The notes beneath the pieces are model-generated. The model saw only the letters and a list, made by a program, of their open reading frames with translations, did not search any database and was not told the DNA's origin. The translations under genes were made by a program, and so were the position numbers. This document shows positions 11,792 through 56,101 of a DNA stretch of 64,000 nucleotides, in pieces. Position 1 is the stretch's first letter. Each line of letters begins with the position of its first letter. This DNA comes from Lytechinus pictus (taxonomy: Eukaryota): positions 18,044,001-18,108,000 of the forward strand of contig NC_087251.1 of NCBI RefSeq assembly GCF_037042905.1. Reading direction: 5' to 3'.

Positions 11792-14700
11792 CTAAATGGG
11801 ACAGCATTTGGCCTCTGCTTTTTTCCTCTGTCTCTGCTGCATGATAAGGGCATCTTGTTGCCTTTTTTCCTTCATCGCAGTCAGGTAGTCCTGGTCCTGG
11901 TGTACTGAGATGTGTTCCTGGGGCTTCTGGCCCTCAGAGGTTAGCTGAAGGATGGTCTCCACGAGATATGACATGGCATCACCTGAGGTGCAATATAACA
12001 AATATGATTAATATTCACAACTGATTTTCTTAAACTTTTGTGCAAGGTTAATAATTGACTATTAACTGTTCAGTCATAATTGATTAATATTTAAATTGAT
12101 TTTTAACATTTTTGTGCAAGGTTTGTGATTGACTAAAACTTCAGTTAAAATTAATCTGATCTTTTTAAAACAATAGTTACACAAACCTGGTGTGAGGTAA
12201 ATACTATGGTTACGAAAGGGGCTGATCAATGTGATCAGGAGCCAGTTTCATGGAACTGCCACATAATATGAGTTTGTAATCACTTTGTGTTTCATATAAC
12301 ATGTTTGGAAATATTGTGATGTCACTCCTTCACGTTAATCCTGAGAGATTGGTCGACCAAAGTTACAATAGATTTCACTTCAATATATATGTTACCAAAA
12401 TTTTACAAGACTGATTCTAATTATTACTGAATATGCATGACATATTTGGGTTTTTATTCTTATCATAGATATTATTAATAACCCTTTTCATTTTCCATAA
12501 CATTTTCTACACATATTTAGAATAAATATTTCCAATTGTACAAGGAATGACATAAACCAAAAACTCACAGGAAACATACTGGGGTACATATCAAGGGCTC
12601 CTTGAATACATATGCAAAAACTGATACTGAGGCTTGTTAGGCTGTGTATTAGAGTGCCACATAAGATTCGGGTGAATTTCTATGGGCAGCCATGAGGGCA
12701 ACAAACAGTTGTATAATTTTAAGTGGAGTGGAAGCTAGCCAGACAGCCAATTTTTTCCTTATGGTGTTCTACAAAGAACAAAGCTACCAAGAAGTTATCA
12801 CACTGGCCCTGCCACGTAGAATGAGCAAGCTGCACGCTGCAAGCAAGCAGGGCTAGCGTGGTACATTCATGGCAGCACGGTAGTGCAGCCAGGCCAGCTA
12901 GCTGCATGATCGTTTATGCATGCACCTGATCTGATGTCCACCATCATGGAGTCGGACTTTGAAAATGAGTTAGTCGTTAATTCTTAGAGATTATGATGTA
13001 ATTTCTTGGTAGCTTTGTTCTTTAAAAGACACCATAGGAAAATAGAAATTTACCCGAAACTTATGCACTACTTACATGGCTTTTTATAACAAGCCAACAC
13101 TGAGTGCATCTGGTAGAGGTTCAGAGTTATAGGGGAAAAGCAACACTAAAATCGAAAGCAAGATTCTTTTTAGAGTACCTCAGTCACATTTCCCCTACAG
13201 TGACCGTACGGCGAGTTGACAACAGCCGTTTTAACATTTTCCTGTACTAGCTACATATAGATTGTTTGAATAAAAATTAATAAAACGGCTTGCTGTACGG
13301 CCACCGTAAGGGAAGTGTGACTGAGGTATAAGCTACACAAGAATAATGGTATCACAGATGGATTACAAGGACTATTTGTTACAGAGTATGCAAGTTTAGT
13401 TTCTATGATGAATTTAAATCTTTCCAAAGCAGGATCATATTGCAAACTTGGCATTCTTTGCCAATGGATGTTAGAAACGCTTCCTTATTATCTTTATTCA
13501 AACAACAGTTAAAAAGGCAAGCTTATTAATACACATAACTGTTCTTTACATAAATGCATGGTGGGTGGGTGGGTCGGTTATTAGTTATTAAGTATTGTAT
13601 AAATACATGTAATTCATCATTATCATTAATATAATTTTTTTTACGTTTCGTATTCCATATAACTAAATTATGTATTCTATCATTTACTGATTAATATTTT
13701 TCTGGGTGACCCAACTTTACAAGCAGACTGCTTTCATGGGCATCCAATTTTAATAAGTATATAAAACAAACTATTGTGCATTTCTTTAAGTATGATGCAT
13801 CATCTTATCTGTATAATGTCTTTTTTATACTTTGTAATTTTTATTTGTATATAATTGATTTTGTATATTTTTATGGAAAACAAATAAATTCAATCCATCA
13901 ATCAATCAATATTTCATTAATGTAGGCATAAAAAGCTGTTGAATTTAACTAAGATGATTCTTAGGAGCTTCAATGTAATCTTATTACAAAGTACACATTA
14001 ATTGTTCAAATGTACTGTCAAAGCTGCAATAGAATACTCAGAATAATGATTGAAACTAACTTTTTCAACTTTATTTTAGATATTGTCAAAGTTATCATAA
14101 ATGTACTAAAACATATATTTTGAAGTAGAATTGTTTTTGAGGAGTATGCAAGTCTATCGTTTATCATCTACTGTGTATCATCATAACTGCTCCTGCCATA
14201 AAAATGAAAGCAAAGCACAGCAAAACACACAATACAGTGTGAGTAAAAAAAACCTTGACACCTTACCAATCTCCATTTTAGGAAAAAAAAATGTCATGAA
14301 TGCATAATCATTATATATGACTGGAAAAATTATCTTCTCTGAAATAATTTCATACCATATTCATGTGGTATGTGTTAATGCTTGGATGATCAGTAGGTAT
14401 TCTTTGCAGCAATGTAAATTTTGATTTGTGCCAAAGTAAGGCATGACTGCAATGAATGAATCCAGATCTATGTCAATGATGTCATAATCCTACAAGGGTT
14501 GCATTAAAATCCATTTCTAAACACCTTTTCAGTAATTTACATTATAATCGTTCAATAAACAATTTCATTGAAAAGGGATTTGCAGATATGTTTACTAACT
14601 CATGTAGGATTATTATATACATCATTGGCATCTGGGGTTCATTCATGGCATTCACGCGTTACTATGGTGCAAATCAAAATTTACATCACTGCAAAGAATA

Positions 14701-17700
14701 CCTCAATCCTGATCATCCAAGCACTAACACATACCCTATAAATATGGTATCAAATTATTTGGGAGAAGATACTCTTTCCAGTCATATATAATGATTATGC
14801 ATTCATGACATATTTATTTTCTTCAATTGGGGATTTGTGAGGTGTCAAGCTTTTTTTACTCACACGATATCTGAGCTTATATTCCAACATTCATCCTTCA
14901 ATTTCCAATAAATGATACATCTATATTTTGCGCAAGCTGCAATCACTTCCTGTATTCATTATCCATAAGAAATATTTTCATCAATCAATAAGTCATTGTT
15001 AGAGATTTATGACATGTTAAGTTGACGTAATGATTTATGGAAACACCTGTTGTTTTTTATACACTCGAATCTAAATGACAACTATTTTTTCTTTGTTTAC
15101 AAGACTACTCAGGTGTATAGAAAGATATTCAATATCATCTTTCACCTTTATCGCCCCAACCTTTTATTCTCCTCTCAGAAACATTGTATTATACGTTGCA
15201 AATAAGTGTTCCCTCTTCTTATTTCATAGTGGACTTCAAATTATGAATACATAAATTGGAAAAAATGAATAAGAGAGACTGGGGGAAAACACAAAACAAT
15301 AAAAGACTAGCACATTTGTTATTCTGCTCTACACATGTAGTGGCTCAAGATTCACACAAATAAGACACTAAAAGTAGCAAATACCAACTTTTTGAGTGCA
15401 AATAAAGAAAATAAAAAGCCATGGTGGACTTCGAATTATGAATACATAAATTTGAAAATTGGAATAAGAGAGACTGGGGAAAAACACTAACAAAACAATA
15501 AAAGACTAGCACATTTGTTATTCTGCTCTACACATGTAATGGCTCAAGATTCACACAATAAGACACAAAAAATAGTAAATACCAACTTTTCGAGTGCAAA
15601 TAAAGAAAATAAAAAGAGAAAAAACACAAAAATTTAATAAAATAGTGCAAGTATTAATATCACAAGTACATTGCGATTAGAATAAAGTGCAAGTATTAAT
15701 ATCACAAGTACAATGCATAGTATATGGTGCACATTATGAGCAGAACACATATCTTTTGTGTAAAAGTATATCTACTGAAGTTGTACACTTGTCATACCAC
15801 TTTTGGTACAAACCATTTACTAAATAATGAACAAATATAATAAAAGCCTATCCTTGCTTTTCAAAACCGGCAACTGCAAGTGAAACTTCTAATAAAAAGT
15901 AATTCAATGATCATGAGCCTTTTAAGAACCTTTGAGGTTTAGAATAGATCTTTCTTCAAGTATCCCGAGATACTGTCATTACTGTGATAGGTACCACAAA
16001 CCTCAAGTAGTATACTTTCAACGCAGCTTACATTATAAATGCATTTTTTTTATATTGTATTTTTTTGTATTAGGGGTGGCAATGTTAAAATGATGGTAGT
16101 GATGATTGGGAAGGGGAGGATGAAAGGAACAGGGAGAGTAAGTAAGGCGTTGTGAGAGAAAAAGAGTAGATCAGACAGGTTGTGGGGGTGTATAAAGCTT
16201 AGAATTAAGATATTATACTTGAATAAGGGCTCCCATAGGTGGCAGAAAGGGCAAAAAAGGGGAGGGTAGGGGCTTAAAGAGATATGAAATAAGAACAGTC
16301 AAATGGGAAAGACAGCAAGAAAGAACCAGTAAATGCAAGATCAAGATAGAGAGGAGATGAAAAGAAAAGAAAAGTTGGAGGTATGTGAGAAAAGAGAGTG
16401 AGATAAAATTAAGAGAAAATCAAGTCCAGAAAAAAATTATGAAAAATAAAGAAAATGGAGTAAAATATAAAAAAGAAAAATCAGGGATGGCAATAACAAT
16501 AATAAAAAGTACGAAATTTATATAATTTTCTCATCCCCCCCAAAAAAAGTGTTTTTGGTGGAGGAAATTATTCAAGAAAAGTACAATAATTTGTTGTCTG
16601 AAAAACTGCATTCCTAGAATACTCTGTTTTACTTACCAACATTGGTATCATCCTTAGCTGATGTTCCAAACCAGCCAATAAACTTGTTCTCTTTGCAGAA
16701 ATGATCCAGCATGTCTGCATCTATCACTGTATCTGGCAAGTCACACTGATTAGGTAAAATGATTAACTACATCTTAATAGATCTACAGAAAATCAACATT
16801 TGTAAACTAAACTGTAAAAAAATAAAGTAAAAGTTTTGTTTTTAAAGGCCAAGTCTACCCTAACAGATCAATATGATTAATATTAAATCAAATTATAACA
16901 CTCTAAATTTCACTCAATATGGATTTGTAATACTGAAATCTTGGGTTCGAATCCAAATCAGTTGACTCGATTTTGATTGGCAAGAAATTTCTACATGATG
17001 CATTTGCACTCAACTCCTGTGTAGTGAATGGATACCTGGCAGGAATATTTATTTCTGGAAGTGCTTACAAACTGGTACTGTAGCTGGATTGGGGTGGGTG
17101 GGTATTACATAATAGTACTTCTATTGCTCACCTTATTAGCTAATAATAAAATAGGCACTGGCTGCTCGTTAGCTAACATCACTTTTTCATGCACATCTGT
17201 TGACCACTATAAGAAGCAGAGAAATCGAAAGTTAGAATGTGTGGGTATGAGTATAAGAAATATCTTGTGACATTTTTCCCTTTCTTTTTTGCATTTCAAT
17301 GCAAAGAGGTGGTCATGAAACAAACTTTTAATGAAAACTTGATTTTAAAATTGACAAGATATACAAATATTTTTAATCACTCGTGTATGGCTGAATATCG
17401 TTGCTGGTGTGATTGAAACTTGAATCTCAGATTCTTTGATTCTGAAGAATCATTTTATATCACTTTTTCAATGAGATAATCTGTCAAGTGATGTCCTATT
17501 TGGGTTCAGCTCGCCATCTTGAAAGATTAAGGCCACTGTCCCGTAACTTAGGGAAAGACCTTTGTTTGTCACTTCCTTAGAAATTTTACTTAATTTGGAT
17601 ATAATACAAGATTTTGAGTTTGACCTCCAACAGTGACATGAGAACAATACCTATCGATATGAATGTTTTATAAATTTTACAGGGAATATATAAGCATTGG

Positions 17701-20700
17701 ACATTCCTTAACTTTTATTGTTTGCAGAGTTCTCAGTTTTAAAATGTTAGAAACTTTCCTACTTTTTAGTTTGGAGGTTGTGACCTTATGGAAAATTATC
17801 AAATTATTCAAAATAGCAAGGAAAACAGACAGGGGATGAATTCTTGACCCACAGACCAAGGCAATCCTGCCTTGCCACCCAAAAATGAATACAATGATGG
17901 ATTTAGAAAGGATTTATGTACCTGATGACCTACCCATACACTGTAGATACAATGGCAGAAAGAGGATTATCTGTCCCCCCTTTGTCCAAATTGGTAAATC
18001 TACTTTCTTCTGAATGCACTGAAGTTAAATACTCATCCTTACATATAGGTTACATGTAACAATCCCATTTGCGCATGTAACATTTGACTGAGGTTAAAAG
18101 AGCCTTTCCCTTATAACATAATTAAACATGGGTTCATTTTGAAATTATTATATCAATCATCAATGTTTGGTAGATATTTGATTAATAAACCATCAATTAG
18201 TGAAGTAGCAAATCTAAAATTCATACATTTCAAAAGTTAATTCATCATCTCCTTATCATTTATTTGTAGTAAATTGAAATTCTAATACAATAGTTCGAGA
18301 GTAAAAGAACATGAAGAACCACCACTCAGAAGCTGGCAGTCAGTTTAATTAGGAAAAACGTACATTACAACAGTTTTGTTGAAAGACAGCATGCAAATGT
18401 GAAAATGCTTCACAAAGCAAGGAAACCTCTACTTTTTGTTCATATTACATGTATCTACAGTGAAGTAATCATGCCTACCTTTAATACTGAGTCAAATGTG
18501 GCAGGTCTAGAAGAAAAGAGTGACAGGTATAAGTCATGCAATATCAAGTCCTGACAATTAGAGCAATCACAGAATAGTATTCACACATGATACTGATTTT
18601 TATCCAAGTGGTTCATTAATTGCAATCATGTTATGCCAATATCACCACCCCATTGAATATACATACACCTGTAATTTTCCTAAAACAACTAATCTTTAAA
18701 AAACAAATGCCAAAAGGAAACGTTGCGTTTTTCCATTGATCAGTATTTATGTTGCAGAATTATTTAAATTTCATAATTCTGTCACAAAACATTTACCAAG
18801 AATATTACAAATTCTAGATTTCATCTTATCCCCCTGAATATTTATTACATATAATTCATTTCAATACATGTAAATGTCCTTTAATCCATTTTGAAATTGA
18901 AGTGAACACACCATGTAACAAATTCAAAGCCTTTTCTGTGTTATTCCCTCACTGATATAACTCTTTGTTGTGAAAAAATTCAATATTGGGGTTTTTGTCC
19001 ATAAACAAGGGGTATGGTACATGTAGTATCGCAAAACATTAATCTTGATAGATCAGTTATGATTTGATTAATTTTGTCCTTACAGTGATAAATTTCTTTT
19101 TTTTTAATCGTATTTTATCTTGTAGAAATGCCTCTGGCTACCATAAAAAGTTTCAAATAAATTCTTTCAATCAAATTCAATGCAAACAAAGTAATTCACA
19201 TGATAGGGCAAGTGTGCATATATACAAAGAAAATTCTGCTAGTGCATGTAAGCATGCTAGGCAACACTATAAATTTATCATGCATAGCGCAGACAAGGAT
19301 TCCACTCTTCACCCTAAAAGACCCATATCATTCATCCTACAATTCCAGAAAATAATGTAGAGCACTGTTTCAAAAACAACTGGTCTGTTTTATCAGTATT
19401 ATTTGGAGCAAAAGGATATCAAGTCACATAGATTACACCCATCTCCACAGATCTGAAGATGTGCAATTTATGACATCTAAAATCTACAATTCCAGTGAAT
19501 AACAAATTATATAAACTAATACAAACTATATACTATATTAAAAATTATAATAGACAACATAAAGAATTGTATCACATGTACTTCTAAATTAAAACAACAA
19601 TCCTTTTAATCACAAGGCATGCTAAATCTAGTGCATACTCAGGGGGTCGTTTCATAAAGCTGTTTGTAAGTTAAGAGCGACTTTAAGGACGACTAGTGAA
19701 CCCTTCTTACACGCTAAACCATCTTAACTTACTAACAGCTTTATGAAACACCCACCGGGTCACATAGATCTTACCTTGAGAGATCAAATACAATTACAGC
19801 AGCAATGCTGAAAGTGGAAGAAAATATAGATAATACCATATGGTTATAATTCTGACATCACACCAGTACAGATACATCCAACGTTATAACTGATAAAAAT
19901 TATCATGTAAATCCATAGCAATCCATGTGCATGAAAGTTACAAATAATTGCAAAGAGGGTTACAGGACCGAAGATGGATAATGGATTTAATAACTGATCA
20001 TTCTGTAATGATGGTCACTGGTTTTACTTCATCAATCTTTCATACCTGCAAAGGGTTCATCAAGGTTTGATAAATAATGGGAAAAAAATGTCAGTAAAAA
20101 AAATTCTTGCTTATAACCTATAGTACTTATAGTCACCAATACAAATAATCACTAATCTGGTGAGTCACTGACCACACATCTCTCAAATTTTTATGAATGT
20201 TAATTACTATACTAACTATTACTAAGTTGTTTGTGACATTCAAGCAAAATAATCTTGTTTTTATTTCATTTTTGAACAATTATTATAAAGGTTTAGAAAT
20301 CTAAACTAAAAGATACTGTATTCACATGTACATGTAAGCATTTTTTTCTTCTTCAGTTTATTCATATTTGCAGGAAATAATGAATGTGACACGGATATTG
20401 AATGAAAGATGGAAATGTAATCAAATCCTAGCACTTATCCTCATGATTTATGATGACGTTTAATATGATAGTAAACCTTTCAGATTTCTGAACAAATAAC
20501 CAAAGCAATCTGTTATCAACTTTTTGTAAAATCAAGGGCCTTGGACTCAAGTTTTATAGTCCAGTATCAAAATTTAGACGCATAATAGCTTTCCCCTTTT
20601 TACAGTCATTCAAAGTGAAAGAAAAATATATAACTACTGTTATGTTGTACTTACGCATATTTGTAGTATACTCTTGTCATGTGACCAAATCTCTCATGAC

Positions 20701-23700
20701 CGGCAATATCCCTGTATCACATGAATAACAAACAAACGATTTAACAAATGATGTAACCAGGAAAAGGTTACATGGTTTATAAGGGGGGGGTGTCTAACTA
20801 TTGAAAGGATGAATTAATCTCATAAAAAGGTAACTACGTCAAAGGGGAAGGCACATACAATATATGTAAATACATGTAGAGGGTCATACAGTAGTTTGCA
20901 GTTTGAAAGGGGTGCACAATGTGGCTGTGCCTCCATTCCCTTGGATCATCACCTGAATATGATTACATATTGAAATACTTGACATTATACAGATATTGGT
21001 TATTGAACTACATCTCTATTCCAAAGGTGATTTCTATTCAAGGTCATGCTTTATCATTCTGAATGTGCTTTTATAGATTACAAATGACAACAGTAATAAT
21101 AACTACTGGTACACTATGTAAAAGAAATCATCTTACCATAATTGTAAATTGACTTTAGTATTCTCATCCCAATCTAATGACTTCAAAGCAAAGTCAACAC
21201 CTATTGTTAATTTGTAGTTAGGTGAGAAGTAACCTGGATAATTGTAAAAAGAAAAATGATTTTGTGAATCTAAATTGTATTTTCTTTCCCAAGAGTACAT
21301 TTTCCAGAAGATAGAAGACACTTTTAGTAAGGAAGTTTACCCTGACATCAAGTTGCTTAATTCTCTTTACTAAAATCAGAAAAAAATTGAGAAAAATAAT
21401 TGAATATGAACAATAATTTGTAAAGTTTGATTTTGTGCTGTCATATTCAAGCAGCTGTGCCATATGTGATAATGTCATGTTAAATAATTCAATAAATTCC
21501 CTTTTCCAAATGGTTCATGAGTGAAAATAGTTTTTCTATCGAATCATGTATGAAATAATGGTCTGCAGATATATATATTCTAATGGCACCATATGATATT
21601 CAAATTACATGATATAAGAGAGATTTGGCATCACAAAACCTTAAAAACTCAACTCTACTATCTCTTTGTGGAATTTTCCCCAAAACTCGATCAATGGTTT
21701 TTCTTGTCTTTAATTTCAGCAGATTATGTATAAAAACATATTTCCTACATATATGTTTTATGCTGTCCAGTTCTTAAATGATTTTTTTTTTAAACTGCAA
21801 ATGAACATCATTAACCTTGTGTACAGGCTAAACCTATGGTTTCCTGATAGTACTACATGTAGATAGCTTCTGAAAAAGTGCTCTCTGACCATGATTGCTA
21901 TAACAATAAAACTTAGGCCTGCTATATATTTTTCACTTAATAGTGTATCAGGTATTGAGTAAAACAAGCATTATAAATGTATTACTACCACATGGCTGCA
22001 GTCTGTTTTGTATTGTTTTCTAAAGGGAAAACTCATTTAATGATAACATTATCACATTGAAATCCGCACTGAGAATCTTACAGGTTTTGCCATTTGTGAC
22101 ATTCTATGAAAAAAATAAAAATTTGATGTTTGGCGAGTGATTCCATAAATAAAATATTACTAGGCCAAATAATACAAAGCTAAAATGGGCCTTTATACTG
22201 TTTAAGAAACAACATAATGTGCTTTTAAAATAAAAACTGACCTTCAGTATATCTCCTGATGAGTGATGTCTAGATGAAGAAGAAAAATGGTATGTACAAT
22301 GAATGGTCAATTAATTAAAACCATAAATCAATCAATATCTGAATATTATTTCTTTGTAAAAATAAGCTGTAAAGTACTTGTCTACTCAATACTATTTCAA
22401 ACTGAATGTCTTTGTGAATGGATAATGATGGTACACTTAAAAGAGCCAAGTATGTTCATATGAATTTAGACTACATAAATACATTGAAAAGTTACAAATA
22501 ATTTTAGTATTGAAATACTGTTGTATGATGAATTCTGGTATCTTAAAAAATATTCTAAACTTATATTTACCTTTCCTGTGATCACAATCAATCCAAAGAT
22601 GAAATTTGCAATAAAAAGGGGAAAGAAACAAAAGATAATAATATGACAGCTATTCTAAAGTTGCATGTGAAGTGGTTGAGAATCAGTTTTTTTTCAACTG
22701 TTTTATTTTCTTCTATCACATCTTAACTACAAATGTAATAAGAAGTAAGAATAGTACCGGTACTGAAGATTTGATCTTTGTAGTATTTGTGCAAGAGCTA
22801 TCTCACATGTTAGGGAAGTTGGTCACTTTGTAAACTGGTGTGACGGACACAATCTGGTTCTTAATATCAACAAGAATAAAGAAATGGTATTTGATTCTTC
22901 TTGGCCCCATGAGCCATTACTCATTCATGACAAAAGGCTTGAGCAGGTTTCTAAATTCAAGTACCTGGTAACCAATAAGATGATAAAATTAACTGTCATA
23001 AGTACTCCCAAAACTGATGAAAGGATCTTAGCTCTCTTCTACCAATCTCAGGTACCAAGTCAGAATTCTGTGCTGCTTCTTTTAGCAGTTATATGCACAT
23101 CCTGGGGGGTGTTTCACAAAGATTTAAGTATGACTTAAGTCGCACTTAAATGCCGACGTGTACATGATATGCAACACGCGATCTTATTGATAGATACGCA
23201 GTAGTGCGCATCCTAATGACGCGATCTGACCATTGTCGTCAAGCCTTTCATACCGTACGCAACTCGGTATTATGTGTGACTCTAACTACATGTAAGTCAT
23301 ACTTAAATCTTTGTAAAACACCCCCCTGGTCGGTATGCAAATCAGGAGACTGATGATGTCATCCACTCACTATTTTTTGGGGTATTTTATTACATGTATA
23401 AGAAATATTCTAATTTTCTCCTCATTGTCAAGTGAAACAACAATTAATTCTTCGCTAAACAGTATGTGGAATTATCACTGTTCAATACTGGTTCAGTCAA
23501 GTTGTCAAATCTGTAAAAAAAATATTGTATGCCGGTAATTCAAACAATAAAAAACAAAAGAAATAGTGAGTGGGGGACATCATCATCTGTCTCATTTGCA
23601 TGTCATTGATTTGTGCATATCACTGTTTTGTGAACAATAAGTAAAACTTTAAAATGTCATAACTTTCTTATATATTACATCTGATTTTGATGAAATTTTC

Positions 23701-26700
23701 AGCAATATGCTCCATATGTTCAATTTTTCTCAATTTTTTTCAAATCAACATTTTTCTGGGGTGGACTTGACCTTTAAAGGCCAAGTCCACCCCAACAAAA
23801 AGTTGATTTTAATAAAAAGAGAAAAATCCAACAAGCATAACACTGAAAATTTCATCAAAATCGGATGTAGAATAAGAAAGTTATGACATAATAAAGTTTT
23901 GCTTAATTTCACAAAACAGTTACATGTATATGCACATCCTGGCTGGTATGCAAATGAGGAGACTATGACATCATCCACTCACTATTTCTTTTGTACTTTA
24001 TTACATGAAATATTCTAATTTTCTTCTCATTGTCAAGTGATACAACAATTAATTCCTCCCTGAACATGTGGAATTAGCATTGTTTAATACTATATGGTTC
24101 AGTCAAGTTGGTCCTTATTTTCAAATCTGTAAAAAATGAAATATTGTATAATTAAAACAATAAAAAACAAAAGAAATAGTGAGTGATGGACATCATCTAC
24201 TGAGTCACCTAGTTGTGCATATCACTGTTTTGTGAAAAATAAGTGAAACTTTAAATGTCATAACTTTCTTATTTTACATCCGATTTTGATGAAATTTCAG
24301 CACTATGCTAGTTTGATTTTTCTTTATTTATTCAAGTCAGCATTTTCCTGGGGTGGACTTGACCTTTAACTTACATATTTGCATTTGTACATTTCATTTT
24401 ATATGATAATTAACTCTGTAAAGATATCATTTACTGATAAATCTCATACAAAGAATGTTTATACTCAGGAGCTGCACTGCAAGAATATTGATTCCATTTA
24501 TGTAAGCATGCACAACAAATTTTCATTGTTAAACAAAACATAAAATATTTACAAGATAGAAGTACAGAAATTGTCAATTAAAAAAGCTCTAGTACAAAGG
24601 CCATCCCAAAATCCCAATACCAAAATCAGAAATAATACCACTACTCTCATCAGCCCCGATTAATTGTTCCTGGTGAAGGGCTTTGGGGTAAACAACTACA
24701 AAGTACTAGGTACAAATTTTCATCTAATGATAAAATAAAATAATGTTAAGCAAGGCTCCACATTAACTTTTTTTGGTGGTGGCCCGTTCGGGCCACCAAA
24801 ACCATCAAATAATTTTTTTTGGTGGCCCGATATTAAAGTTTGGTGGCCCGAAAAATATAAAGAAAAACATTAAAAATGAATAAAACAAACTTCTGAAATA
24901 TTAATTCTGCAGCCACTACCACAGCACTAAGTTACTTTCACTTTATACATCTTGTACGTAAACCTTGTTTCCTGTTATTTTACTTTGCTAATTGATCATT
25001 GTTTCTATCGTTGTAAAAATGAAATGATTGAAAGTGAATAAATGAATTGTATTGTTTGCTGGTTGTGTGGACTTTTTTTTTAAATCTCTGTATAGAGATA
25101 ATGGTAAAGTAAATAAATAGTGCATAGCAAACTCAGATAGATGTACAAAACAATGGTTTTTCCTTCCTTCCTCTTTGAATCCTAAAACCTAGATTATGCA
25201 TGCCCCAAATCCAGTTTATTTCTGTTTTCTCTTTTGCAGCATATTATAGAAGGAGAAAATCACAGAAAAATATGCTGCAAAATTAGAACAATGCATAAAA
25301 GGGGGAAACAAACAAAAATAATTTTCAAAAAGTATATTACAAAAAGAAAACAAAAATAATAAAAGAAATTAAGTGAAATAAAACAAAAGAAAGAAAATGA
25401 AGAAAGAAAAAAACAAAGAACAGGGAAAAAAAGAAAAAAGAAAAGAAAAAAATTAGAGAAAAAAGGAAAGAAAATGAAAGAAAAATTAATAAAACAAAGT
25501 TAATATAAAAAAGGGGAAAATTAAGAAGCCATGACATATATTTTTTAACAGCTGTGGCAACAGTCTATTCTGACTGGAATATAATTAAAAGCCAAGCAAA
25601 TAATTTTCACTTACCTTTTGGGAATGGCACATTTCGATTTTTATATCCTTTAGTTTGTATTATTTTATTTTCAGTAGAAACATATTTTTTTATCAGGCAT
25701 ATTCAATGGGAAGGGGTATAAATGGTTTTAACCACTGTAAAAAAAAATGAAAGAAAAAAAAATAAGAAAACGGCAAAAATTATATCTGGAAAAAAAGTGT
25801 GAGAAAAGTCCTTCCCTATATTTGCCAAAATGTTGGGAAAAAAAAATCACATTTCATATCAATGAAATGCCTTCCCAAAGTATTTACTTTCTCAAGAGTG
25901 GTTTAAGAAGTCATTTATAAACAAGAAAGAAAGAAACTGTCTGTTTGTTTTTGGCTAGAAAATACACAGCTTCGAAAGAAACCAAGTATCAACATACATA
26001 CAAATGCACACGTGGGACTGTGATGTACTTGCCTATGTGTTTTTATGTGTATTCATTCATGTGGAAATCGGTCTTTTTGAGTCAAAAGAGAGGTCATAAT
26101 TCCTCTTCTTAAGACTAAATTATCAGGGTACACCAGATTTTCGTAATATAGACTGTAGAATTGCATTTCATTGGTGTAAAATGTGACTTTGACTTAGATT
26201 TTCAAAGTTCTGTGGAAGATTTCTCAGCAGCAACATTTTTTATCGCAGCTCCCTGAGTCTGAATAGGCTGAGCTAGATATTAGAGCACAGGGGCCCGTTT
26301 CTCAACACCGTCATAAGTCTAACTTCTTGACTAAATCAGAGATAGTGAGCTACTTGTCCGCTAACCGTTTCACAAAGCCCTCTTTACCAAGATCGGGTAC
26401 AACAACCTCACTAAATATTTATGACACCTCCGAACCTGTCTTAACTTCTTTCTTAATGACGTAGTGGCATCACGTGGGTAGACTATGACATGCGAAAGTG
26501 CCTAGAAATTTTAAAATTATAATCTTACGTAATCAATCATAGTGGTTGAAATTACATCACAAAACAAGTGGGTTAATGCATTCAATGATAATTGTAATAC
26601 AAAGAAACTATAAAAACTGTTGGTAAACGCCACAAAACCATTCATTTTGAAATAAGTAAAATGATTTAATCTAAAAAGATTCTACCACGTCAGGCCATCC

Positions 26701-28624
26701 ATAATTGAACTCGTATTTGTTGTTTTCAGACCCCTATTAACAGTTGGATGAATTATATCTCTAATTTATGCATATAATTTGTCCAATATCGTATTTTCGG
26801 TATCAATGATTAAAAATGTTCCGTTAAACTATATTTTGATGACGTTTGGAATCGTAAAAGTCCGTATAGTTATCGTCATTTACAAAGAAAACCGTTATGG
26901 TTTACTTTCGTAAACTATTAAAATTGGGTCTCCCGGGGGTACCCATCTCAACGTCCACAAGCGATTTTTTAGTCATGAAATGAATTATTCATAATTTAAT
27001 TTTCTCTGCAATTGAATGCTCCAGTCTTCATGGTCTAAGTATGTATGATGCATAATTAACCTGTGCTATTATTTTGAAAAGATTTATTTCCCAATTTATC
27101 ATAATATTTGCAATTTTGTCATAATTTTTCTTTTTGAAAATTATGCTATTTTGATAGTATCGATATCAAGGTATTCTAGTTAGGAAGCCTTTCGAGAAAC
27201 AGGTTTAGTAAGATTGGAACTAACTCTGTGGTTGGTGGATAAAGATATGACTAACTTGTCCATGTGTTGAGAAACGGGCCCCAGCTAGCTAGTATGCAGT
27301 GGCTTCATGCAAAGCTCACGCCAGCCGGCCGGCGCGGCTGGCTGGATAATAGCTATACTGTATGCTATAGCTGTAGGCCTAATATGCAAACTTTGTGTGT
27401 AGATCAACAAAAAGGGCGCATGACGAACTGGCTTGCAATTTGAGCTGTAGAAAGTTGATAAATGCGTGCAAAATTGGGAGAAAAATTGCGCTACTTTGAA
27501 AATTATTGGTTGCCCGATTCGGGCCACCAAAACTTAACATTTTATCAATAATGGTTGCCCGAGGTGAATTTTTGGTGGCCCCGGGCCACCGCTAATGTCG
27601 AGCCTTGTGTTAAGTAATTAAAAAAGAAAGGAAAGAAAATAGAAAGAAAGAACTTCAAAGAAGGAAGATATACATGTATACTAGATCTTTAAAAAAAAGG
27701 AAAGAATTAAATAAATAAACAAAAAGATGGACAGACAGATAGATGATAGAGAAGAAAGAAAGATAGAAAGAAATAGAAAGAAAAGAAACAAATAGATCTA
27801 AAAATAAGGGGGGGGAAGGTTCCAAGAAAAAAGGACAGAAAAGAAATTTAAGAAAAAGGGAGGAAAAAAAACCCAAGAAAAAAGGGAAAAGAGAATTTAA
27901 TATCATTATCATTTGATCTGTTTAGAAATATTTTCCATGAATGTAGGCCTACTTTTTCTTCCTTCCTTTCTTCCTCCTTCATACAACATAGATTTACATC
28001 CTTTCCTTTCGTTCTTATCAGATTCAGAGTTATCCCTCTTTCTTTCTGTTTCTTCTTTTACTTTCTTTAATTCTTCTTTTCTTTCTTTCTTCCTTCCTTG
28101 CTTCAATTCAGTTTATGACCGTAACTCACAGCACCGTCTTTAATTATAATTCAAATCTAGATAAGTAGCGGATCTGGGTAGGGGCACATCCAAACCGCCC
28201 CCCCTCCTTATTTTGAGAACCATAAAATACATATTTGTTTGTGGAGAACATTGGCATTGCATGATTGTGCATAATTAACAGGCAAGTGAAGATTTTTTTT
28301 TTTTTTGGGGGGGGGGCTTGTCAAAATTTTCTGGCGACAGCCATGACCATCGGGAATGAAGACTTCGATTTGCCTCGTTCATTGAATGAGTGGGTGCAAC
28401 AAGCCCCACGATTCAATTCTGATTCAGTTCAAGTTAACGACACCGTTGTGACGGTTGTCGTTTTATACTCGTTAGCTTGTTATCTTGATTAAACAGCACG
28501 TGAAAATATACGAATGGGACCGATTCAAACCAGGTTAAGAAAGTATCTACTCACCGACTCCAAATTCGCCGATTACAAGTACTTTATAAAGATGTTCTAC
28601 CACTGTTCTTTCGGCGGACGACAT
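11792..28624 (-). CDS. RAB32: Rab32/Rab38-family small GTPase, 10 coding exons, 230 aa (possibly the invertebrate Rab32LO paralog)
   Basis: GT-AG exons read by hand with consistent phases: 28624-28555, 22575-22571, 22269-22242, 21233-21137, 20711-20655, 19807-19775, 18506-18479, 17206-17132, 16745-16637, 11982-11792 (693 nt including TAG). Protein: MSSAERTVVEHLYKVLVIGEFGVGKTSLIRRYTEGYFSPNYKLTIGVDFALKSLDWDENTKVNLQLWDIAGHERFGHMTRVYYKYAIAAVIVFDLSRPATFDSVLKWSTDVHEKVMLANEQPVPILLLANKCDLPD...GWFGTSAKDDTNVGDAMSYLVETIL...AKCCPI. All G boxes are present, with Rab32/38-type IGVDFALK and WDIAG motifs and a C-terminal CCxx prenylation motif. Exact paralog is uncertain. Confidence 0.93.
12652..13070. mobile_element. 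MITE in the last Rab intron
   Basis: CATAAGATTCGGGTGAATTTCTAT vs ATAGAAATTTACCCGAAACTTATG, plus an inner inverted block AAAGAACAAAGCTACCAAGAA / TTCTTGGTAGCTTTGTTCTTT. Confidence 0.65.
13178..13326. mobile_element. ~150-bp MITE with TA TSD, copy 1
   Basis: TA|CCTCAGTCACA ... TGTGACTGAGG|TA. Confidence 0.75.
14235..14867. mobile_element. Tc1/mariner-like MITE
   Basis: TA|CAGTGTGAGTAAAAAAAACCTTGACACCT ... AGGTGTCAAGCTTTTTTTACTCACAC; long imperfect inverted arms. Confidence 0.7.
15229..15617 (+). repeat. Direct tandem duplication of ~195 bp in a Rab intron
   Basis: GTGGACTTC(A/G)AATTATGAATACATAAA...GAGTGCAAATAAAGAAAATAAAAAG occurs at ~15229-15418 and ~15424-15616. Confidence 0.85.
16943..17045 (+). 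mobile_element. Degenerate tRNA-derived SINE fragment
   Basis: Pol III B box GGGTTCGAATCC followed by a TGCACTCAAC..GTGTAGTGAATGGATACCTGGCAGG SINE-core-like segment. Confidence 0.45.
19641..19758. mobile_element. Short palindromic MITE next to Rab exon 6
   Basis: GTTTCATAAAGCTGTTTGTAAGTTAAGA ... TCTTAACTTACTAACAGCTTTATGAAAC. Confidence 0.65.
22571..22575 (-). CDS. RAB32: 5-nt microexon (GAAAG) of the Rab gene encoding the G-K of the P-loop
   Basis: Minus strand reads TGATCACAG|GAAAG|GTAAAT. Exon 1 ends GTC G (phase 1) and exon 3 starts ACA TCA CTC (phase 0); these 5 nt restore both the frame and GEFGVGKTS. Confidence 0.88.
23086..24365. mobile_element. Two tandem copies of the TTAA/AGG MITE sharing one TTAA (23774-23777); the first is truncated and interrupted
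   Basis: ...GACCT|TTAA|AGGCCAAGTCCACCCC ... GACCT|TTAA; full copy at 23778-24365. Confidence 0.8.
23105..23325. mobile_element. PIF/Harbinger-like MITE with CTG TSD nested in a TTAA-MITE
   Basis: CTG|GGGGGTGTTTCACAAAGATTTAAGTATGACTTA ... TAAGTCATACTTAAATCTTTGTAAAACACCCCC|CTG. The empty site GCACATCCTGGTCGG is visible in copy 1 at ~3232-3247. Confidence 0.85.
24751..27607. mobile_element. hAT-like non-autonomous element in Rab intron 1
   Basis: TIR CAAGGCTCCACATTA / TAATGTCGAGCCTTG, flanked by duplicated TGTTAAG (7-bp exact match; hAT typically gives 8). Repeated subterminal GGTGGCCCG motifs at both ends. Confidence 0.75.
26291..27281. mobile_element. Harbinger-like element with CAG TSD nested in the hAT-like element
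   Basis: CAG|GGGCCCGTTTCTCAACAC ... GTGTTGAGAAACGGGCCC|CAG. Confidence 0.85.
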
Positions 28625-29370
28625 ATTTGTCACTCAAATTTCAAATTATCGCAAAATGCTTAAATCGTCATTCGTGGGCTTGACAAAATAGGAAATAAAA
28701 ATCACTCATCCCGACTTACGAATTGTGAGCATCATATCGGTAGGCACTTATGATCCAAGTTTGAAAGGAGACTCGTAAAATGACGTCAGTCTCGCCGATG
28801 AATATTCATTAGATCGTGGTCGTGCGTGTTCAATACACACTGCGTGCAGGCATGCAGATAGTTATATGCGAGGAACTTTGGCTCCAGAGACAAGTTGTCA
28901 AATAACGTGTGTGTGTGTGCGTGTGTGTACCATCGGCTGGTAGTATGCCATGCTGTCTAAGACTTCAAACGCGTCGGAGAGAGTGCATGGCAATTCGGTA
29001 AAACGAAGTTTCCCATATAAAGAGATAATAAAATAACACTATGTACAGTACGCCCGGGGGGGCCACTTACATTGACGAGTGGATACCATGCGCGACCAAA
29101 AAAACACGTAAAAAGGATGTCTTTTTCAAGAGAGGGCACGTACGTAACGTGATAAGGGTGTCAAAAACACAAAAATATTGAAAAAAGGGTATCTATTTCC
29201 AGTACGTTGAGAGGCAAATGTCAGATCATGGGAGGCAGGAGTACAATCAGGTTTTTTGAAAGGGAAGAATAGTGTAGAATAAAAGGTATTATATATAGCC
29301 AAATGATCTAGGTGAGGGAAGTGAACAATGATGTTTTTTAAAAAAAAGAATGAATATACCTTACCTGAAT

Positions 29371-30683
29371 ATTATGGTGAAGCCAATTTAAAAGGAGGTG
29401 AGACAAGTTTCAATGGAGGTTTTAAAAAAGAATAAACTGTATTATGGTGAAGCCAATTTAAAAGGAGGTGAGGCAAGTTTTAATGGAGGTTTTTAAAAAG
29501 AATAAACTGTATTATGGTGAAGCCAATTTAAAAGGAGGTGAGGCAAGTTTCAATGGAGGTTTTTTAAAAGAATAAACTGTACTACAAATTATGGTGAAGC
29601 CAATTTAAAAGGAGGTGAGGCAAGTTTCAATTGAGGTTTTTAAAAAGAATAAACTGTTCTACAAATTTAAAAGGAGGCGAGGCAAGTTTCAATGGAGGTT
29701 TTTAAAAAAAGAATAAACTGTACTACAAACTATGGTGAAGCCAATTCAAAAGGAGGTGAGGCAAGTTTCAATGGAGGTTTTAAAAAAAGAATAAACTGTA
29801 CTACAAATTATGGTGAAGCCAATTTAAAAGGAGGTGAGGCAAGTTTCAATTGAGGTTTTTACAAATTATGGTGAAGCCAATTCAAAAGGAGGTGAGGCTA
29901 GTTTCAATGGAGGTTTAAAAAAATAAACTGTATATGGTGAAGCCAATTTAAAAGGAGGTGAGGCAAGTTTCAATTGTCGAGGTTTTTTTAAAGAATAAAC
30001 TGTACTACAAATTTGAAAGGAGGTGAGGCAAGTTTCAATGGAGGTTTTTAAAAAGAATAAACTGTATTACAAGTTATGGTGAAGCCAATTTAAAAGGAGG
30101 TGAGGCAAGCCTCAATGGAGGTTTTAAAAAAGAATAAACTGTATTATGGTGAAGCCAATTTAAAAGGAGGTGAGGCAAGTTTTAATGGAGGTTTTAAAAA
30201 AGAATAAACTGTATTATGGTGAAGCCAATTTAAAAGGAGGTGAGGCAAGTTTTAATGGAGGTTTTTAAAAAGAATAAACTGTATTATGGTGAAGCCAATT
30301 TAAAAGGAGGTGAGGCAAGTTTCAATGGAGGTTTTTAAAAAGAATAAACTGTACTACAAATTATGGTGAAGCCAATTTAAAAGGAGGTGAGGCAAGTTTC
30401 AATTGAAGTTTTTAAAAAGAATAAACTGTACTACAAATTTAAAAGGAGGCGAGGCAAGTTTCAATGGAGGTTTTTAAAAAAGAATAAACTGTACTATAAA
30501 TTATGGTGAAGCCAATTCAAAAGGAGGTGAGGCAAGTTTCAATGGAGGTTTTAAAAAAAGAATAAACTGTACTACAAATTATGGTGAAGCCAATTTAAAA
30601 GGAGGTGAGGCAAGTTTCAATGGAGGTTTTAAAAAAAGAATAAACTGTACTACAAATTATGGTGAAGCCAATTTAAAAGGAGG
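29371..30683 (+). repeat. Tandem ~70-bp modular satellite in the left foldback arm (~18 units)
   Basis: Unit TTATGGTGAAGCCAATTTAAAAGGAGGTGAGGCAAGTTTCAATGGAGGTTTTTAAAAAGAATAAACTGTA. Variants add CTACAAA or lack the TATGGTGAAGCCAA module. Confidence 0.95.
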
Positions 30684-30699
30684 TTTTTAGGGCTGTTCA

Positions 30700-31433
30700 G
30701 TGGCCAGGGGGGGGGGGGTTGATTCCACCCCCCCCCCCCCAAGACCTCGGTCGCCGATGGCGCGAGTGCTGCAAAAATTTGCACGCTGGTAGTGTGCGAT
30801 GTGATCTACAAGGCTGTATGACAAAATTTTCAAAAATAATGAGATTTTATTTGATATGAGTTAATTATGCTAATTTATGCATAAATCATACTTTTTGTTC
30901 TAATTCACTAAATAAAGCTCCTAGAATGCAAATTTTTTGTAAAATTATTCTTTGTAGCATTCTTAACAATCTCAATTGAAAAAAAATTGTTTTGGAAATC
31001 AATTTCTTATGTATTTCATTGTTTTATAAATTTCTTATGAATTTCTTTGTTTTTCAACCTTTTTTTTTTTTTTTTTTTTTTTTACCAGATTTATTGCACA
31101 ACCTTTTTGAAGCATAATTATGCTAAAATCAATTGATTTCAGCTGTTTAAAGTAAAAATAATCATATCTTTATGACTAAGATGAGAAAACTCAATTCGCA
31201 TTGACTTTGTATATAAAATCACGTTTAGGAACAATTTTTGGTCAGATATGCACTTACAAAATGTTGCGTAATTTCAGAACCGTGTACATGGGGTCGTAAA
31301 TTTGGTCTCAAAAGATGCGCAAGACTTTTTTTTGCAAGTGGTGCAGTAAAAAAAATTTGCGCGGCGGAATGATCGCAGAAAATGTAGAGGGGGGAGTTGA
31401 TTCAACCCCCCCCCCCGGCCTGTTTAGGGTTAA
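30700..31433. mobile_element. piggyBac-like MITE nested in the foldback element (left end damaged)
   Basis: Right end ...GTTTAGGG|TTAA; polyG-TTGATTC(C/A)A-polyC hairpin motif near both ends. Confidence 0.5.
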
Positions 31434-32778
31434 GAATAGTTGGTCTAATCAACTTTAGACTTGGTCTAAGTGTGTATAATTGAGTAGAGACGATCTGATC
31501 AGATTTTGGGGTTAAAAGTCAATGACTCATCAAATACATAATATATCCTGTTCTTGCCGTAACTCAGTAAAGAATCATGGATGGGATCAACTTCATATTC
31601 AAAGTTTAGCTAAGGATCTGATTATATTGCAAGATTACAGATATGCAGTCGTTATATAAATTCAAATAGTTCATTTTCATATTAACTGTACAGTTGTCAA
31701 TAGGGTGAAATTCAAGCTTGGTTCCTGAATGCACATTTAAGGCAGATAATCTCAGTAAATAGTAGTAGTTCAAGTTCATAGGTCACAGACATCAATATGC
31801 ATGTATACCCAAAATATCTCCTATTCCCAAGTCTTATAGAATCATTTGAGGGTTCTACTTCCAATATGGCTTATCTGTGCATATGACTGGTGAAATGTTA
31901 GCCCATGAGGTCAAAGTGCATGGTATAACAGTATGTCCTCAAAAAGCGTATTCTTTCTTCCAAGTGATATTTGTGACTACAGATGTTTTGCATATGTAAT
32001 GAGCTTGATGAAGACCAAAACACAAGCCACGAGAGGATTAGGATGAATCTGCACTCTGACTGATAACTTTTTAATCTCCTGAATTCTTTGAAAGGATCAA
32101 TTTGAAAATTACCTCTTGTGTGAGTGAAGATTTTTAGTCAAATTTCTATTGTCAGCAAGGTCATGTTAAAAATGTAAATATATAATATATTCTTGGTCTA
32201 GCAAAGGCAGTGCCATAAATTTTGACTGCATGTAGTTGAGAATCCATCTAGTTAGTCATAAAACATCAACGGCTAATTGTATCCATTCAACTTAGGGTTT
32301 CTTATTCCTACGATACTTGCTAATGTTAAATCATGGAGAATCACCTGTGTAAATAATGATACATTGTTTGTTAGCATTAATCGGCATTGAGGCTGATAAA
32401 TTTCTTTGATAACTATTTGATGCAAGATTATATGACCTTTGTGTTTTATTCAGTATTTTTAGACTGTCTCATATCATTTTGAACATAATTTGCGACCATT
32501 TTTGCTGCCCACTCAACAGTCTTTGTAGATGTTTGTGCAAAAACTTGATTAGAATGCATGCCGTTATCACACAGTACTTGCTAACTTTTATTATCTTTTA
32601 TCATGATCCTAGGCCTGCCAGTACTGAAAATAAACGTATTTTAAACTGTATTATAGCGTATATTTTTATTTACTCAAGCTGCAGTTGCTTTCCATGATCA
32701 TGAATTGGTTTTATAATACTTGCTGTTAACTAATGTAATTGTCACTTGTTTTTTCTAACAGCGAGAATATATTGCTAT

Positions 32779-33221
32779 ATGTGTCCAGCCACCCCAATAC
32801 CAACAATAAATACATTGATTTAAAGATTCTCATTGATCTTGAGCGATCACATCCTAAGCTGTAAAATGATTTATCTTGTTAATATTGATCAATAATATCC
32901 CTCGCTAGTACTTCATTGAATGCAGAAGAAGTTTGGTGAGAGCTTCAACAAATAAGAGAACAAGATTTGGGGTTCACTTAAGCATGCGATGTGTAATATG
33001 TAGTTCAACTACTTAGCAGTGAGCAAAACACGGATATCAAAGTCTTGTATTTTGTCTTCAACTTTTACAACCTCACATTTTGACAGTATGAAGAAATTTC
33101 TTTTTTTTTTCGGATAAACCAATATTCTAAATATGCGTTTGGAAAACTGAATTACTATTTTGGTTATTTTCTACGAACCTTCCCTGGCAACTTATTGTTG
33201 ATATTTGGGTGGCTGGCCACA
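32779..33221. mobile_element. MITE inside the foldback spacer
   Basis: ATGTGTCCAGCCACCCCAATACCAACAATAA ... TTATTGTTGATATTTGGGTGGCTGGCCACAT imperfect inverted termini. Confidence 0.6.
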
Positions 33222-35219
33222 TTTGTTTTGAGAAAAAATATCAAAGAGTATATGAAAAAAATATTTATGTAAAAAAGCTTGCCTAGCTGTTGGTATTTTC
33301 TTCTATTGTACTTTGTCATGTAACTCTGGTAGATTTCATTTCGTTACACAAAATGGGGTTCAGTATTCAGAAAAACCATTAACCTTGCCTCAACCACAAC
33401 AGTACTTGCCAAACTGGATAAATCAACATTATATCAAGCTGTGTAGAAGAACTTAATGATCATGTAGATACCATTAAGTGCATACATATGTAATGTCTTT
33501 CAAGCTGTATGACAAAAATATTCTTTTCCATCCAACATCAGCTTCTACTATTTTTTAAGGTTAGTTTTTATTGTCATGTTGGCAAATTGTGAAATAGTTC
33601 ATGTTGAAATATGTTGTATTACCTGTCATGCATTTGTAATGTTATTTTTTTAGAATATATTCTGTCATCATTTTCAGTACATAAAAGTTTATTCAATGTA
33701 TGCCTTTACCAAAGTTGGCCATAAGCACAGTGGGTACCAACTATCACTGAAGACAACACAACAATTACTCAAAATATATGCATAGCCTTATGAATGTACA
33801 AGTCAATAAAATCTACTATGACTACATAGCTTTTTTTTGTGCAACACAGTCATATTTCATTTGGATCAATTCAAAATTGAGTGGTGTTTTGGGGGTAATG
33901 CTATGGTAACTGCAGTTCTGTTGTCCTCTGACAGTTGGTGTTGTAAGGATGTGATTGGCAGTGTGTGGACGTCATGTTATAAGAGAAAAAAGAAAGTTAA
34001 AGTGAGAGTGTTGGCTTTGAAATGGACTCAACCTATGAAAATTAAAGTTTGTGCTGCAGAAACTGGTGTGGTAGTGGGATGATAATGATGATGAGGAACA
34101 GGGCCGGTATTCAATGCTACTCTTAAAGCCACAATTTCAAGTATATTTTACTCAGTATTTTGCAAAAGTAAAATACTTATCCATCTTTGGTATTCAATTG
34201 CATTTTTTTTTGGCTAAATATTTTGCTTAAATGTAAGTCAGCCATCTACTAGACTTAAGTCTACATATACAAAAATGATACGCACAGAAATACATTCACA
34301 CATTTGGCACTATTTGGCTCAAAATTTATAACATCACAATGGGTATTAGTATTTAGTTCAATTTGGATAAGGTAAATTCTGAGATCTGATCTGCATACAA
34401 GTTTAAGCATTTTGATAAGCCAGCCAAATTGCTAAGTAAAATACTTACAAAATCAAAACTTAGAATTTAATAGGCGGCCGAGGTATTATTTTCTTCCAGA
34501 GGACATGTACAGATTTCTTGTTGACAAAGGATGACATGATGATTATTTTGCAAATATGGCTTATTAAAAAATATATTATGTATATTCCATTTCAGTGACA
34601 ATTGCATTTTTGGGGAGGGGATATTACGTATTTGGGAATGGAAAAGTTCAAAATTAATGCAAACTTAACCTATTTACGCAGGGGGGGGGGGGGGGGGCTC
34701 TGAGCTCTGCGATTTAAAAAAAAAAGTCTTTTGCATGTTTTGAGACCAGTTTTGCGAAGCCCGGGTACTGGGTTCTGAAAATTACCAAACAATTTGTAAG
34801 TGCATATCAGACAAAAATGGCTCAAAATTGTGATATTTGTGTACCACGTCAATGGAATATGCGTTTTCAACCAAAATTCATGAATGCCTAATTGTTTTTA
34901 GTTTTGTTGAACTAAACTGATTTATGTTATGCTGTTACGAGAGTCCGAGCATCGTTGAAAAAAAACAATGCAATACAAAGGTAAAAACACAAGAAATACA
35001 TTATCGAAGAACACCACAAAGAGTTTCTAAACCAAAAATTAGAACATTTGGAGCTTTATTTAGGGAGTTAGAGGAATAGGTATAGTATACTAATTATGCA
35101 CAAATGAGCATAATCAATTAATAGCAATTTGCATGAAATAAATAACTACACAATTTTGTGGATTATTAAAAGCAATTGCGATCTTTTTCTTCACTATTCA
35201 TTGTTTTTAGAAACCTCAT

Positions 35220-42800: not shown

Positions 42801-43143
42801 AATTATAAGTGCAGACATTAAAAAACAAGTCCTTTATGTGGATATTTTTGTGGTAATGTTTTTCTTGTATAATGTCAAATATGTGAAGCTCTCACAAGGA
42901 TTGTTTTCATCCATCCTGCAAGCACACTTCCATTTAATGCAAACACAAATATCTTATTCTTCTTACAGTAAACTGGAGAAGTTGTTTCTGTGTGACCTCC
43001 CAGCTGTGAAGGACATGGAAGGGATCATTAAGATTCTTGGATCGGCTTTGCCAAACTGTGAAATCAGGTATCTTTCTCTGGAAGGACTCAAAGATTTAAA
43101 GAGACTTGGTAAAGATAATATCAGAGAGACTTTCGATACATAG
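39823..43143 (+). CDS. ATP5S: ATP synthase subunit s / factor B (ATP5S, DMAC2L), mitochondrial leucine-rich-repeat protein
   Basis: Exons ~40655-40752 (..SRPLWGMLNAVFNQ), 41350-41558 (VDRSRIKEVGPDRAAAEWLLRCGASVRF...DATDSSIMHIGFEHF), 41894-42056 (EGIKHLRYLKLHHC...ISSCGDVTDKGL), 42969-43143 (KLEKLFLCDLPAVK...*). These match ATP5S motifs (WLNAVFN, VGPDRAASEWLLRCGA, SCGNITDKG). The first coding exon is uncertain: 39823-39845 (MEGKFVTR) or an ATG at ~39496. Confidence 0.9.
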
Positions 43144-55238: not shown

Positions 55239-55676
55239 GCCGTTGATTCTTATTAAATTTCAGTCTTTGAAATGAATTGTACACTCCCTCCTTGACAATG
55301 GGTATGAATCAATCGCTTTTGATACATGGATGTGAGTACGTGGGACCAAGCTTCAGATTGATATCACCGACAGTCAGAGACTTTGTTTACAATGCATTGC
55401 TCCGCCTCCGCTCTCAGCTCTGTGTATCGTGCATGCACTACGTGTGCCAAGCTAGCTCAACACGTGTGCATTGTCACTTCCGGGTTCAGGGGAGAACAAT
55501 ATTATCAGGAATTAGATCATTATGGTGACGCTAATACTCTCCATCCTTGCTATTTTTATGGTGTTTATTGTCTGTACCGTCATCTGGGCAGTATGTAGAT
55601 CCATGGAGCCAACTAAGCATAAGGTTTAAAGTAAAAAAATACCCAAAGATCAGGACGGAGTACTCCACAACCAGCG
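55239..55676. promoter_or_regulatory. Bidirectional promoter / 5' UTR region between AP5M1 (-) and SELENON (+)
   Basis: Divergent ATGs only 438 bp apart. Locally CpG-rich, with an ETS-type ACTTCCGG (~55476), an E-box CACGTG (~55462) and GTGCATGCAC. Confidence 0.7.
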
Positions 55677-56060: not shown

Positions 56061-56101
56061 GTATTCCAATTCCAACTTTCATAATTATAGTCATGAAATG
56101 T

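Follow-up and report, generated by a model that had tools for sequence, protein, structure and literature searches.

Gene structure and identity

The question raised by this locus, on the minus strand of the 64,000-nt stretch of Lytechinus pictus DNA that was analyzed (hereafter the window), is how a Rab GTPase gene encodes the Gly-Lys pair of its P-loop when its first exon ends inside the Gly codon and its next sizeable exon starts with Thr. The Walker A Lys is required for nucleotide binding. The initial annotation had proposed that a 5-nt microexon supplies the missing bases, and that its inclusion could act as an on/off switch coupled to nonsense-mediated decay (NMD). The first proposal was right in both coordinates and sequence and is confirmed by an RNA joint: 22571-22575 is a real coding exon of Rab32B (Rab32LO) that supplies the P-loop Gly-Lys. 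As to its nature, we consider it likely that the microexon, real and present in most mRNA of the runs read, is an ancient and constitutive exon, and that its two introns probably had a spacing of five bases before the origin of animals. The gene has the following features in the window:

28555..28624, minus strand: exon 1, coding part, from the ATG through base 1 of the Gly codon in the P-loop (model and RNA reads)
22576..28554, minus strand: intron 1, 5,979 nt, phase 1, splitting the Gly codon, with interspersed repeats inside
22571..22575, minus strand: exon 2, the 5-nt microexon GAAAG, comprising the final two bases of Gly24 and the whole of Lys25
22270..22570, minus strand: intron 2, 301 nt, phase 0, the shortest Rab32B intron
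22242..22269, minus strand: exon 3, 28 nt (model and RNA reads)
21137..21233, minus strand: exon 4, 97 nt, with switch I and FALK (model and RNA reads)
20655..20711, minus strand: exon 5, 57 nt, with switch II and its two His (model)
19775..19807, minus strand: exon 6, 33 nt (model)
18479..18506, minus strand: exon 7, 28 nt (model)
17132..17206, minus strand: exon 8, 75 nt (model)
16637..16745, minus strand: exon 9, 109 nt (model)
11792..11982, minus strand: exon 10, coding part, 191 nt, with the CC motif and then the stop (model)

The microexon is preceded by CAG and followed by GTAAAT (22575-22571, minus strand), the exon 1 donor is GTGAGT, and exon 3, which starts with Thr, is preceded by TAG. 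There is a single AG-GNAAR-GT site in the 6,285-nt gap between exons 1 and 3. Under a Markov null, at least one such site occurred in 16.6% of 1000 simulated introns, or in 1.6% with the strict YAG/GTRA context, and so the site by itself is only modest evidence. Other ways of bridging the gap were rejected: among 283 in-frame candidate filler exons of up to ~60 nt, exactly G-K was obtained solely from 22575-22571, and no direct join of exon 1 to exon 3 (≤40 nt) restored G-K-T, the sole in-frame one losing V-G-K. The order of exon 1, microexon and following exon that had been proposed is upheld by the RNA joint and the gene model, but the following exon, which had been called sizeable, is only 28 nt long.

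The ten-exon model (70, 5, 28, 97, 57, 33, 28, 75, 109 and 191 nt) translates into a protein identical to L. pictus XP_063958193.1, with seven differences over 230 positions from the Rab32B of S. purpuratus (223/230 identical), the later part of which agrees with the Rab32LO entry in the portion of the PMC4728774 supplement considered here. When exon 4 was used as a query, 104 relatives were obtained, the top one being L. pictus Rab32B-like. The model protein scored 135 bits against Pfam Ras, and the closest solved structures were those of Rab32, Rab38 and Rab7L1. The FALK stretch after switch I and two switch II His, which are given as marks of Rab32LO, formerly Rab32B, in the sections of PMC4728774 consulted, are both present in the model. 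According to the same sections and those of PMC4355727, Rab32B/Rab32LO is an ancient paralogue that was lost in tunicates and vertebrates. For Tim9, whose microsynteny is reported for sea urchin and amphioxus, a crude motif search gave no match within the 64-kb window.

RNA evidence for inclusion

Evidence from RNA was obtained for L. pictus only, the relatives described below being known from metagenome loci. Approximately 6% of each of three stranded, raw rRNA-depleted runs (X19-X21; one study, tissue unspecified, NMD active) was aligned to 20600-28750, and the contig set of run X1 was also used. The inclusion joint 22271->28554 was found in 16, 35 and 33 raw reads of X19, X20 and X21, respectively (84 in total), and in an X1 contig. 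Among the 12 of 96 between-letter rows listed, this contig alone provided the two letters lying between the sides of the joint (TT on the plus strand). The joint coordinates, the letters between and the shared edge bases together spell out the 5-nt exon, and since a skipped mRNA would join at 22269/28555 or 22270/28556, the 22271->28554 joint cannot come from skipping. The junction between exons 3 and 4 was covered by 15, 27 and 24 reads (66 in total). Inclusion reads amounted to 72%, 96% and 90% of the estimated exon-3 depth in the three runs (pooled, ~88%), and part of the remainder consists of reads whose length does not allow a joint to be called, so that skipping is at most ~12% in the sampled runs. 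The junction check that the initial annotation had suggested came out on the side of inclusion, with no skipping joint among the 15 of 73 joints listed for the three runs and the contigs. Depth was zero in the intron bins 21960-22231 and 22504-22775 in all three runs, and Rab32B reads fell on one strand only. In the runs read, the microexon is spliced into most Rab32B mRNA.

Two further features were apparent in the same reads. A common T>G variant at window position 20669, in exon 5, was present in all three raw runs. Within intron 1, reads of the three runs skip 1,013 nt between inverted arms (26278-27292), which probably reflects repeat copies elsewhere or an allele without the insertion.

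The microexon in relatives

A degenerate switch I pattern identified 45 metagenome loci, and 17 of these, representing ~11 lineages once near-duplicates were merged, carry the same microexon (GNAAR), in answer to the question of whether it is found in orthologs. The lineages comprise three that are cnidarian-like (93-99% to coral and anemone proteins), four that are sponge-like (three clear, L035 uncertain) and four that are non-animal. The remaining loci were distributed as follows: two had the Gly intron only (L043, full, and L015, on a partial contig), both being nearest to bilaterian proteins; four near-identical loci had a different intron, at T26; nine had a contiguous G-K-T, of which four are without any intron and may be cDNA; three had an acceptor before Thr with too little upstream sequence; seven were too short to tell; and three matched the pattern without being Rab32B. 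These last three (L003, L031 and L041) are intronless, divergent small GTPases, possibly prokaryotic.

In 16 loci the two flanking exons are covered, the Gly codon is split by a donor and Thr is directly preceded by an acceptor, and each of these loci contained a single AG-GNAAR-GT site, the null means being 0.000-0.025 per locus; L008 is the 17th microexon locus. With a profile-based spliced aligner that has no special rule for microexons, the two introns were recovered in 16 loci as well as in the window, L029 being missed. The microexon was found as GAAAA, GGAAG, GAAAG and GCAAG, variants that differ by synonymous changes only, and the same two intron phases surround it in coral, sponge-like and non-animal loci. 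In all 16 aligned loci, the downstream intron has a length of 54-163 nt. This intron is the shortest of the gene in the urchin, L016 and L024, and in the coral loci L022 and L026 the two introns flanking the microexon are the two shortest. The bilaterian-like locus L043 is without the second intron, as L015 probably is. Given the lack of the Lys intron in L043, and apparently in L015, a separately skippable exon appears dispensable.

Consequence of skipping and possible regulation

The claim that skipping would remove the Lys and shift the frame was borne out by computation: with exon 2 skipped, a stop arises at codon 32, 401 nt upstream of the last junction and so beyond the 50 nt that mark an AS-NMD switch exon, and skipping of the microexon shifts the frame in every relative as well. 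When exons 2 and 3 are skipped together (33 nt), the frame is kept. An early stop so placed would suit a regulated switch, in which skipping tuned by tissue or stage silences Rab32B while decay conceals the skipped mRNA. The urchin microexon acceptor offers further points in its favor. Its pyrimidine tract is shifted to -75..-35. Among the nine Rab32B acceptors, this one is the poorest in pyrimidines proximally (0.55) and the richest distally (0.80), and it has a 72-nt AG-free zone, long zones of this kind being reported for eMIC-regulated exons in the part of PMC8797185 seen. The motif ACTTCCG in the downstream intron, present in all six cnidarian-like loci that cover the region, can also be counted for a switch. 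Nevertheless, we regard such regulation as unlikely. Inclusion at ~88% of exon-3 depth, zero depth over the flanks and the lack of a skipping joint among those listed all speak against the on/off proposal. The acceptors of exons 3 and 5 have AG-free zones of 67 and 80 nt, and hence that of the microexon is not special; the nearest TGC, corresponding to the UGC found near the 3' splice site of eMIC exons, lies at -35. In addition, the microexon occurs in lineages older than the bilaterian eMIC domain and is fused to the next exon in L043. The flanking introns are little alike between lineages, with local alignment scores near those of other introns, and the one conserved stretch was the 7-nt motif within cnidarians.

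It is about as improbable, in our estimation, that the microexon has been kept since a unicellular ancestor as a regulated splice-and-decay gate on the P-loop, a gate that would be independent of eMIC, would long predate the neural microexon programme and would have ACTTCCG in cnidarians as one control site. A more doubtful idea still is that the introns flanking the microexon are spliced late (detention or retention), and that expression is governed in this way rather than by skipping. Several Pocillopora RefSeq models (P0118, P0122 and P0124) start in or read into the introns flanking Gly-Lys, and a flanking intron is detained for 50 of the 69 constitutive microexons of Arabidopsis (PMC8831610, in the portion consulted), but over the urchin microexon flanks the depth was zero in three rRNA-depleted runs.

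For a constitutive exon, our preferred reading, we propose that there were two old introns five bases apart, the bases between them being held by selection on the Walker A Gly-Lys, and that the microexon is probably recognized via its short flanking intron or introns: the short intron would be removed first and the five bases would then join the neighboring exon, sparing the spliceosome from having to define five bases across the exon. The shortness of the downstream intron in all aligned relatives and in the urchin fits such an order of removal. In the urchin, the pyrimidine tract set back from the acceptor may help recognition. Skipped transcripts, if they arise on occasion, would be cleared by NMD as waste and would have no regulatory role.

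The cnidarian motif could be a splicing element. It lies in the intron after the microexon in L006, L022, L026, L027, L038 and L044, at +28 to +36 in the four complete ones, and is also present in L025 and absent in the urchin. Shuffling gave P values of 0.003-0.009 in the three loci tested, for a motif that was chosen after the data had been seen. Alternatively, ACTTCCG in these loci may represent a transcription-factor site of the ETS type. Two protist lineages have a wider TTCCG motif, which was set aside as post hoc. Also rejected as a general mechanism was a hairpin between the microexon and a complement in the downstream intron, which was found in 4/4 cnidarian loci but only 4/13 others, with varying folding; two of the four non-cnidarian matches were at chance levels of 0.3-0.5.

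Age of the microexon

The presence of the microexon in both animal and non-animal loci implies that it probably predates animals. The non-animal loci (L001, L008, L013/L020 and L033/L034, plus copies) contain compact genes, and in two of them, L001 and L020, each of the seven core-domain introns lies at a position that is also occupied in coral and sponge-like loci: G24.1, K25.0, W67.2, K106.0, K131.0, W156.2 and G168.1. Seven positions in common point to inheritance rather than parallel gain. An apparent intron at H11.0 in L013/L020 was discarded as an artefact of the aligner edge.

Trees of Rab32B were constructed with no Rab32A outgroup. In a careful tree of 26 rows, the non-animal loci formed a clade (100/98) that lay outside animals (92/95) and apart from choanoflagellates (100/98), and this clade, animals and choanoflagellates together were separated from amoebozoans and Fabomonas (98/94). 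A quick tree of 86 rows instead placed the clade on the amoebozoan side. Its placement as sister of animals was not rejected (p-AU 0.18). On L034, a RACK1 gene had its best named matches among early fungi, Capsaspora and animals, with identity of at most 79%, and its position in an unrooted quick tree was outside both the named fungi and the group of Capsaspora plus animals. Amoebozoan-like genomic loci (L007, L010, the L028 group and L036) are without both introns, and consequently the age of the microexon cannot be taken beyond the non-animal clade. As judged from these genomic sequences, the microexon is probably older than animals, and an opisthokont-wide age is plausible. The clade has a GC content of 30-69%, is intron-rich and has its own Rab32B switch II variant, Cys-Met-Thr-His.

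A parallel gain, in which animals and the non-animal clade acquired both introns independently at proto-splice sites and the microexon is not ancient, is very improbable. In its favor, both introns are absent from the amoebozoan-like loci, no choanoflagellate is among the genomic loci spanning the site, and the AAG before the second intron is a favored context for intron insertion. Against it, the two introns are held in common together with as many as five other positions, which would need many coincidences.

Comparison with known microexons

Descriptions of published systems in this section are drawn from portions of the papers cited. The Rab32B microexon has the features of a constitutive, frame-shifting class: it is ≤30 nt, not a multiple of three, bounded by AG and GT, coding and highly included in mRNA. 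Members of this class in human are MPC1 (4 nt), TNNI1, KSR1, TMEM237 and MUSK (PMC9929638), and the MPC1 exon is constitutive even under cycloheximide (PMC9929638). Like them, the Rab32B exon is coding, frame-shifting and <10 nt, with no skipped form detected, and like that of MPC1 it is exon 2 of its gene (PMC9929638). The two differ in that MPC1 has long introns on both sides whereas one Rab32B flank stays short (PMC9929638). They also differ in that conservation of the Rab32B exon reaches corals, sponge-like animals and non-animals, and in that the status of MPC1 includes cycloheximide treatment whereas the Rab32B reads come only from material with NMD active.

Among small plant microexons, roughly half have a length that is not divisible by three (PMC8831610). 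The conserved ones resemble that of Rab32B in being often non-3n, often mis-annotated and within conserved domains; however, 35 of 45 plant clusters go back to the ancestor of land plants but not as far as green algae, whereas the Rab32B exon crosses the boundary between animals and unicellular relatives (PMC8831610). Both classes of microexon also occur in Drosophila (PMC8042270). Neural eMIC microexons are of bilaterian origin and poorly shared between phyla (PMC8797185). The Rab32B exon is like these SRRM3/4-dependent exons in its tiny size, set-back pyrimidine tract and long AG-free zone, but they are mostly frame-preserving and neuron-specific, whereas it is 5 nt long and older than bilaterians (PMC8797185). 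Neither the frame-preserving length nor the bilaterian origin of the eMIC class is found in it.

For Rab32/38, the ancestral intron is at a position other than those of Rab32B (PMC4728774; PMC4355727). The matches in text and supplement of these two papers hold no description of a 5-nt Rab32B exon, and in the portion of PMC4739763 considered microexons are mentioned in the methods only. No report of the Rab32B microexon was found in the open-access literature, subscription papers and figure-only supplements being outside the scope of the search. Constitutive frame-shifting microexons are already known; what is new here is the age of the exon and its spread across relatives. Here, a 5-nt exon that shifts the frame has been retained, in a clear-cut manner, from unicellular relatives to sea urchins with flanking introns of 54 nt to 6 kb. 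The case indicates that such exons were spliced long before the bilaterian eMIC machinery, and it offers a natural series for testing recognition.

Annotation of Rab32B

The expectation that automated annotation would mis-model the gene was often borne out, but not for the present proteins of three urchins. By hand count, 12 of 65 NCBI-sourced homologue models are without the P-loop motif: six resume exactly at Thr, two break before Gly, two join exon 1 to exon 4 and two start at exon 4. For L. pictus, an older model (XP_054759401.1) also has no P-loop and resumes at Thr, and the P-loop is missing from the S. purpuratus Rab32LO sequence in the section of the PMC4728774 supplement consulted. 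Conversely, the P-loop is intact in the proteins that RefSeq now gives for L. pictus, L. variegatus and S. purpuratus. The microexon explains why many public Rab32B models, and one sequence in a published phylogeny, are without a P-loop and could be misread as dead GTPases. The impact is limited in that Rab32B is little studied and the proteins of the three urchins are already correct in RefSeq.

Montipora and Pocillopora RefSeq isoforms (P0112, P0118-P0126) vary near the microexon, with starts in flanking introns, read-through after Lys and an alternative exon. This variation may reflect intron retention in corals. The alternative exon of the Montipora model P0112 was not found in the coral loci.

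Neighborhood of the gene

A 9.2-kb foldback-type element lies at window positions 28739-37909, 115 nt upstream of the Rab32B ATG, and the X1 transcript contig extends to 28739, the edge of the element. The element has terminal inverted arms of ~630 nt (96% identity), inner 70-nt tandem arrays in inverted orientation and a 9-bp target duplication, CATCATATC. Its middle contains no ORF of more than 94 aa, and we take it to resemble a non-autonomous Mutator-like element. On the plus strand, exons at 41342-43143, which have no Pfam match, look to us like ATP synthase subunit s/DMAC2L, and an EF-hand protein with a weak Pfam match is encoded at 55635-56084.
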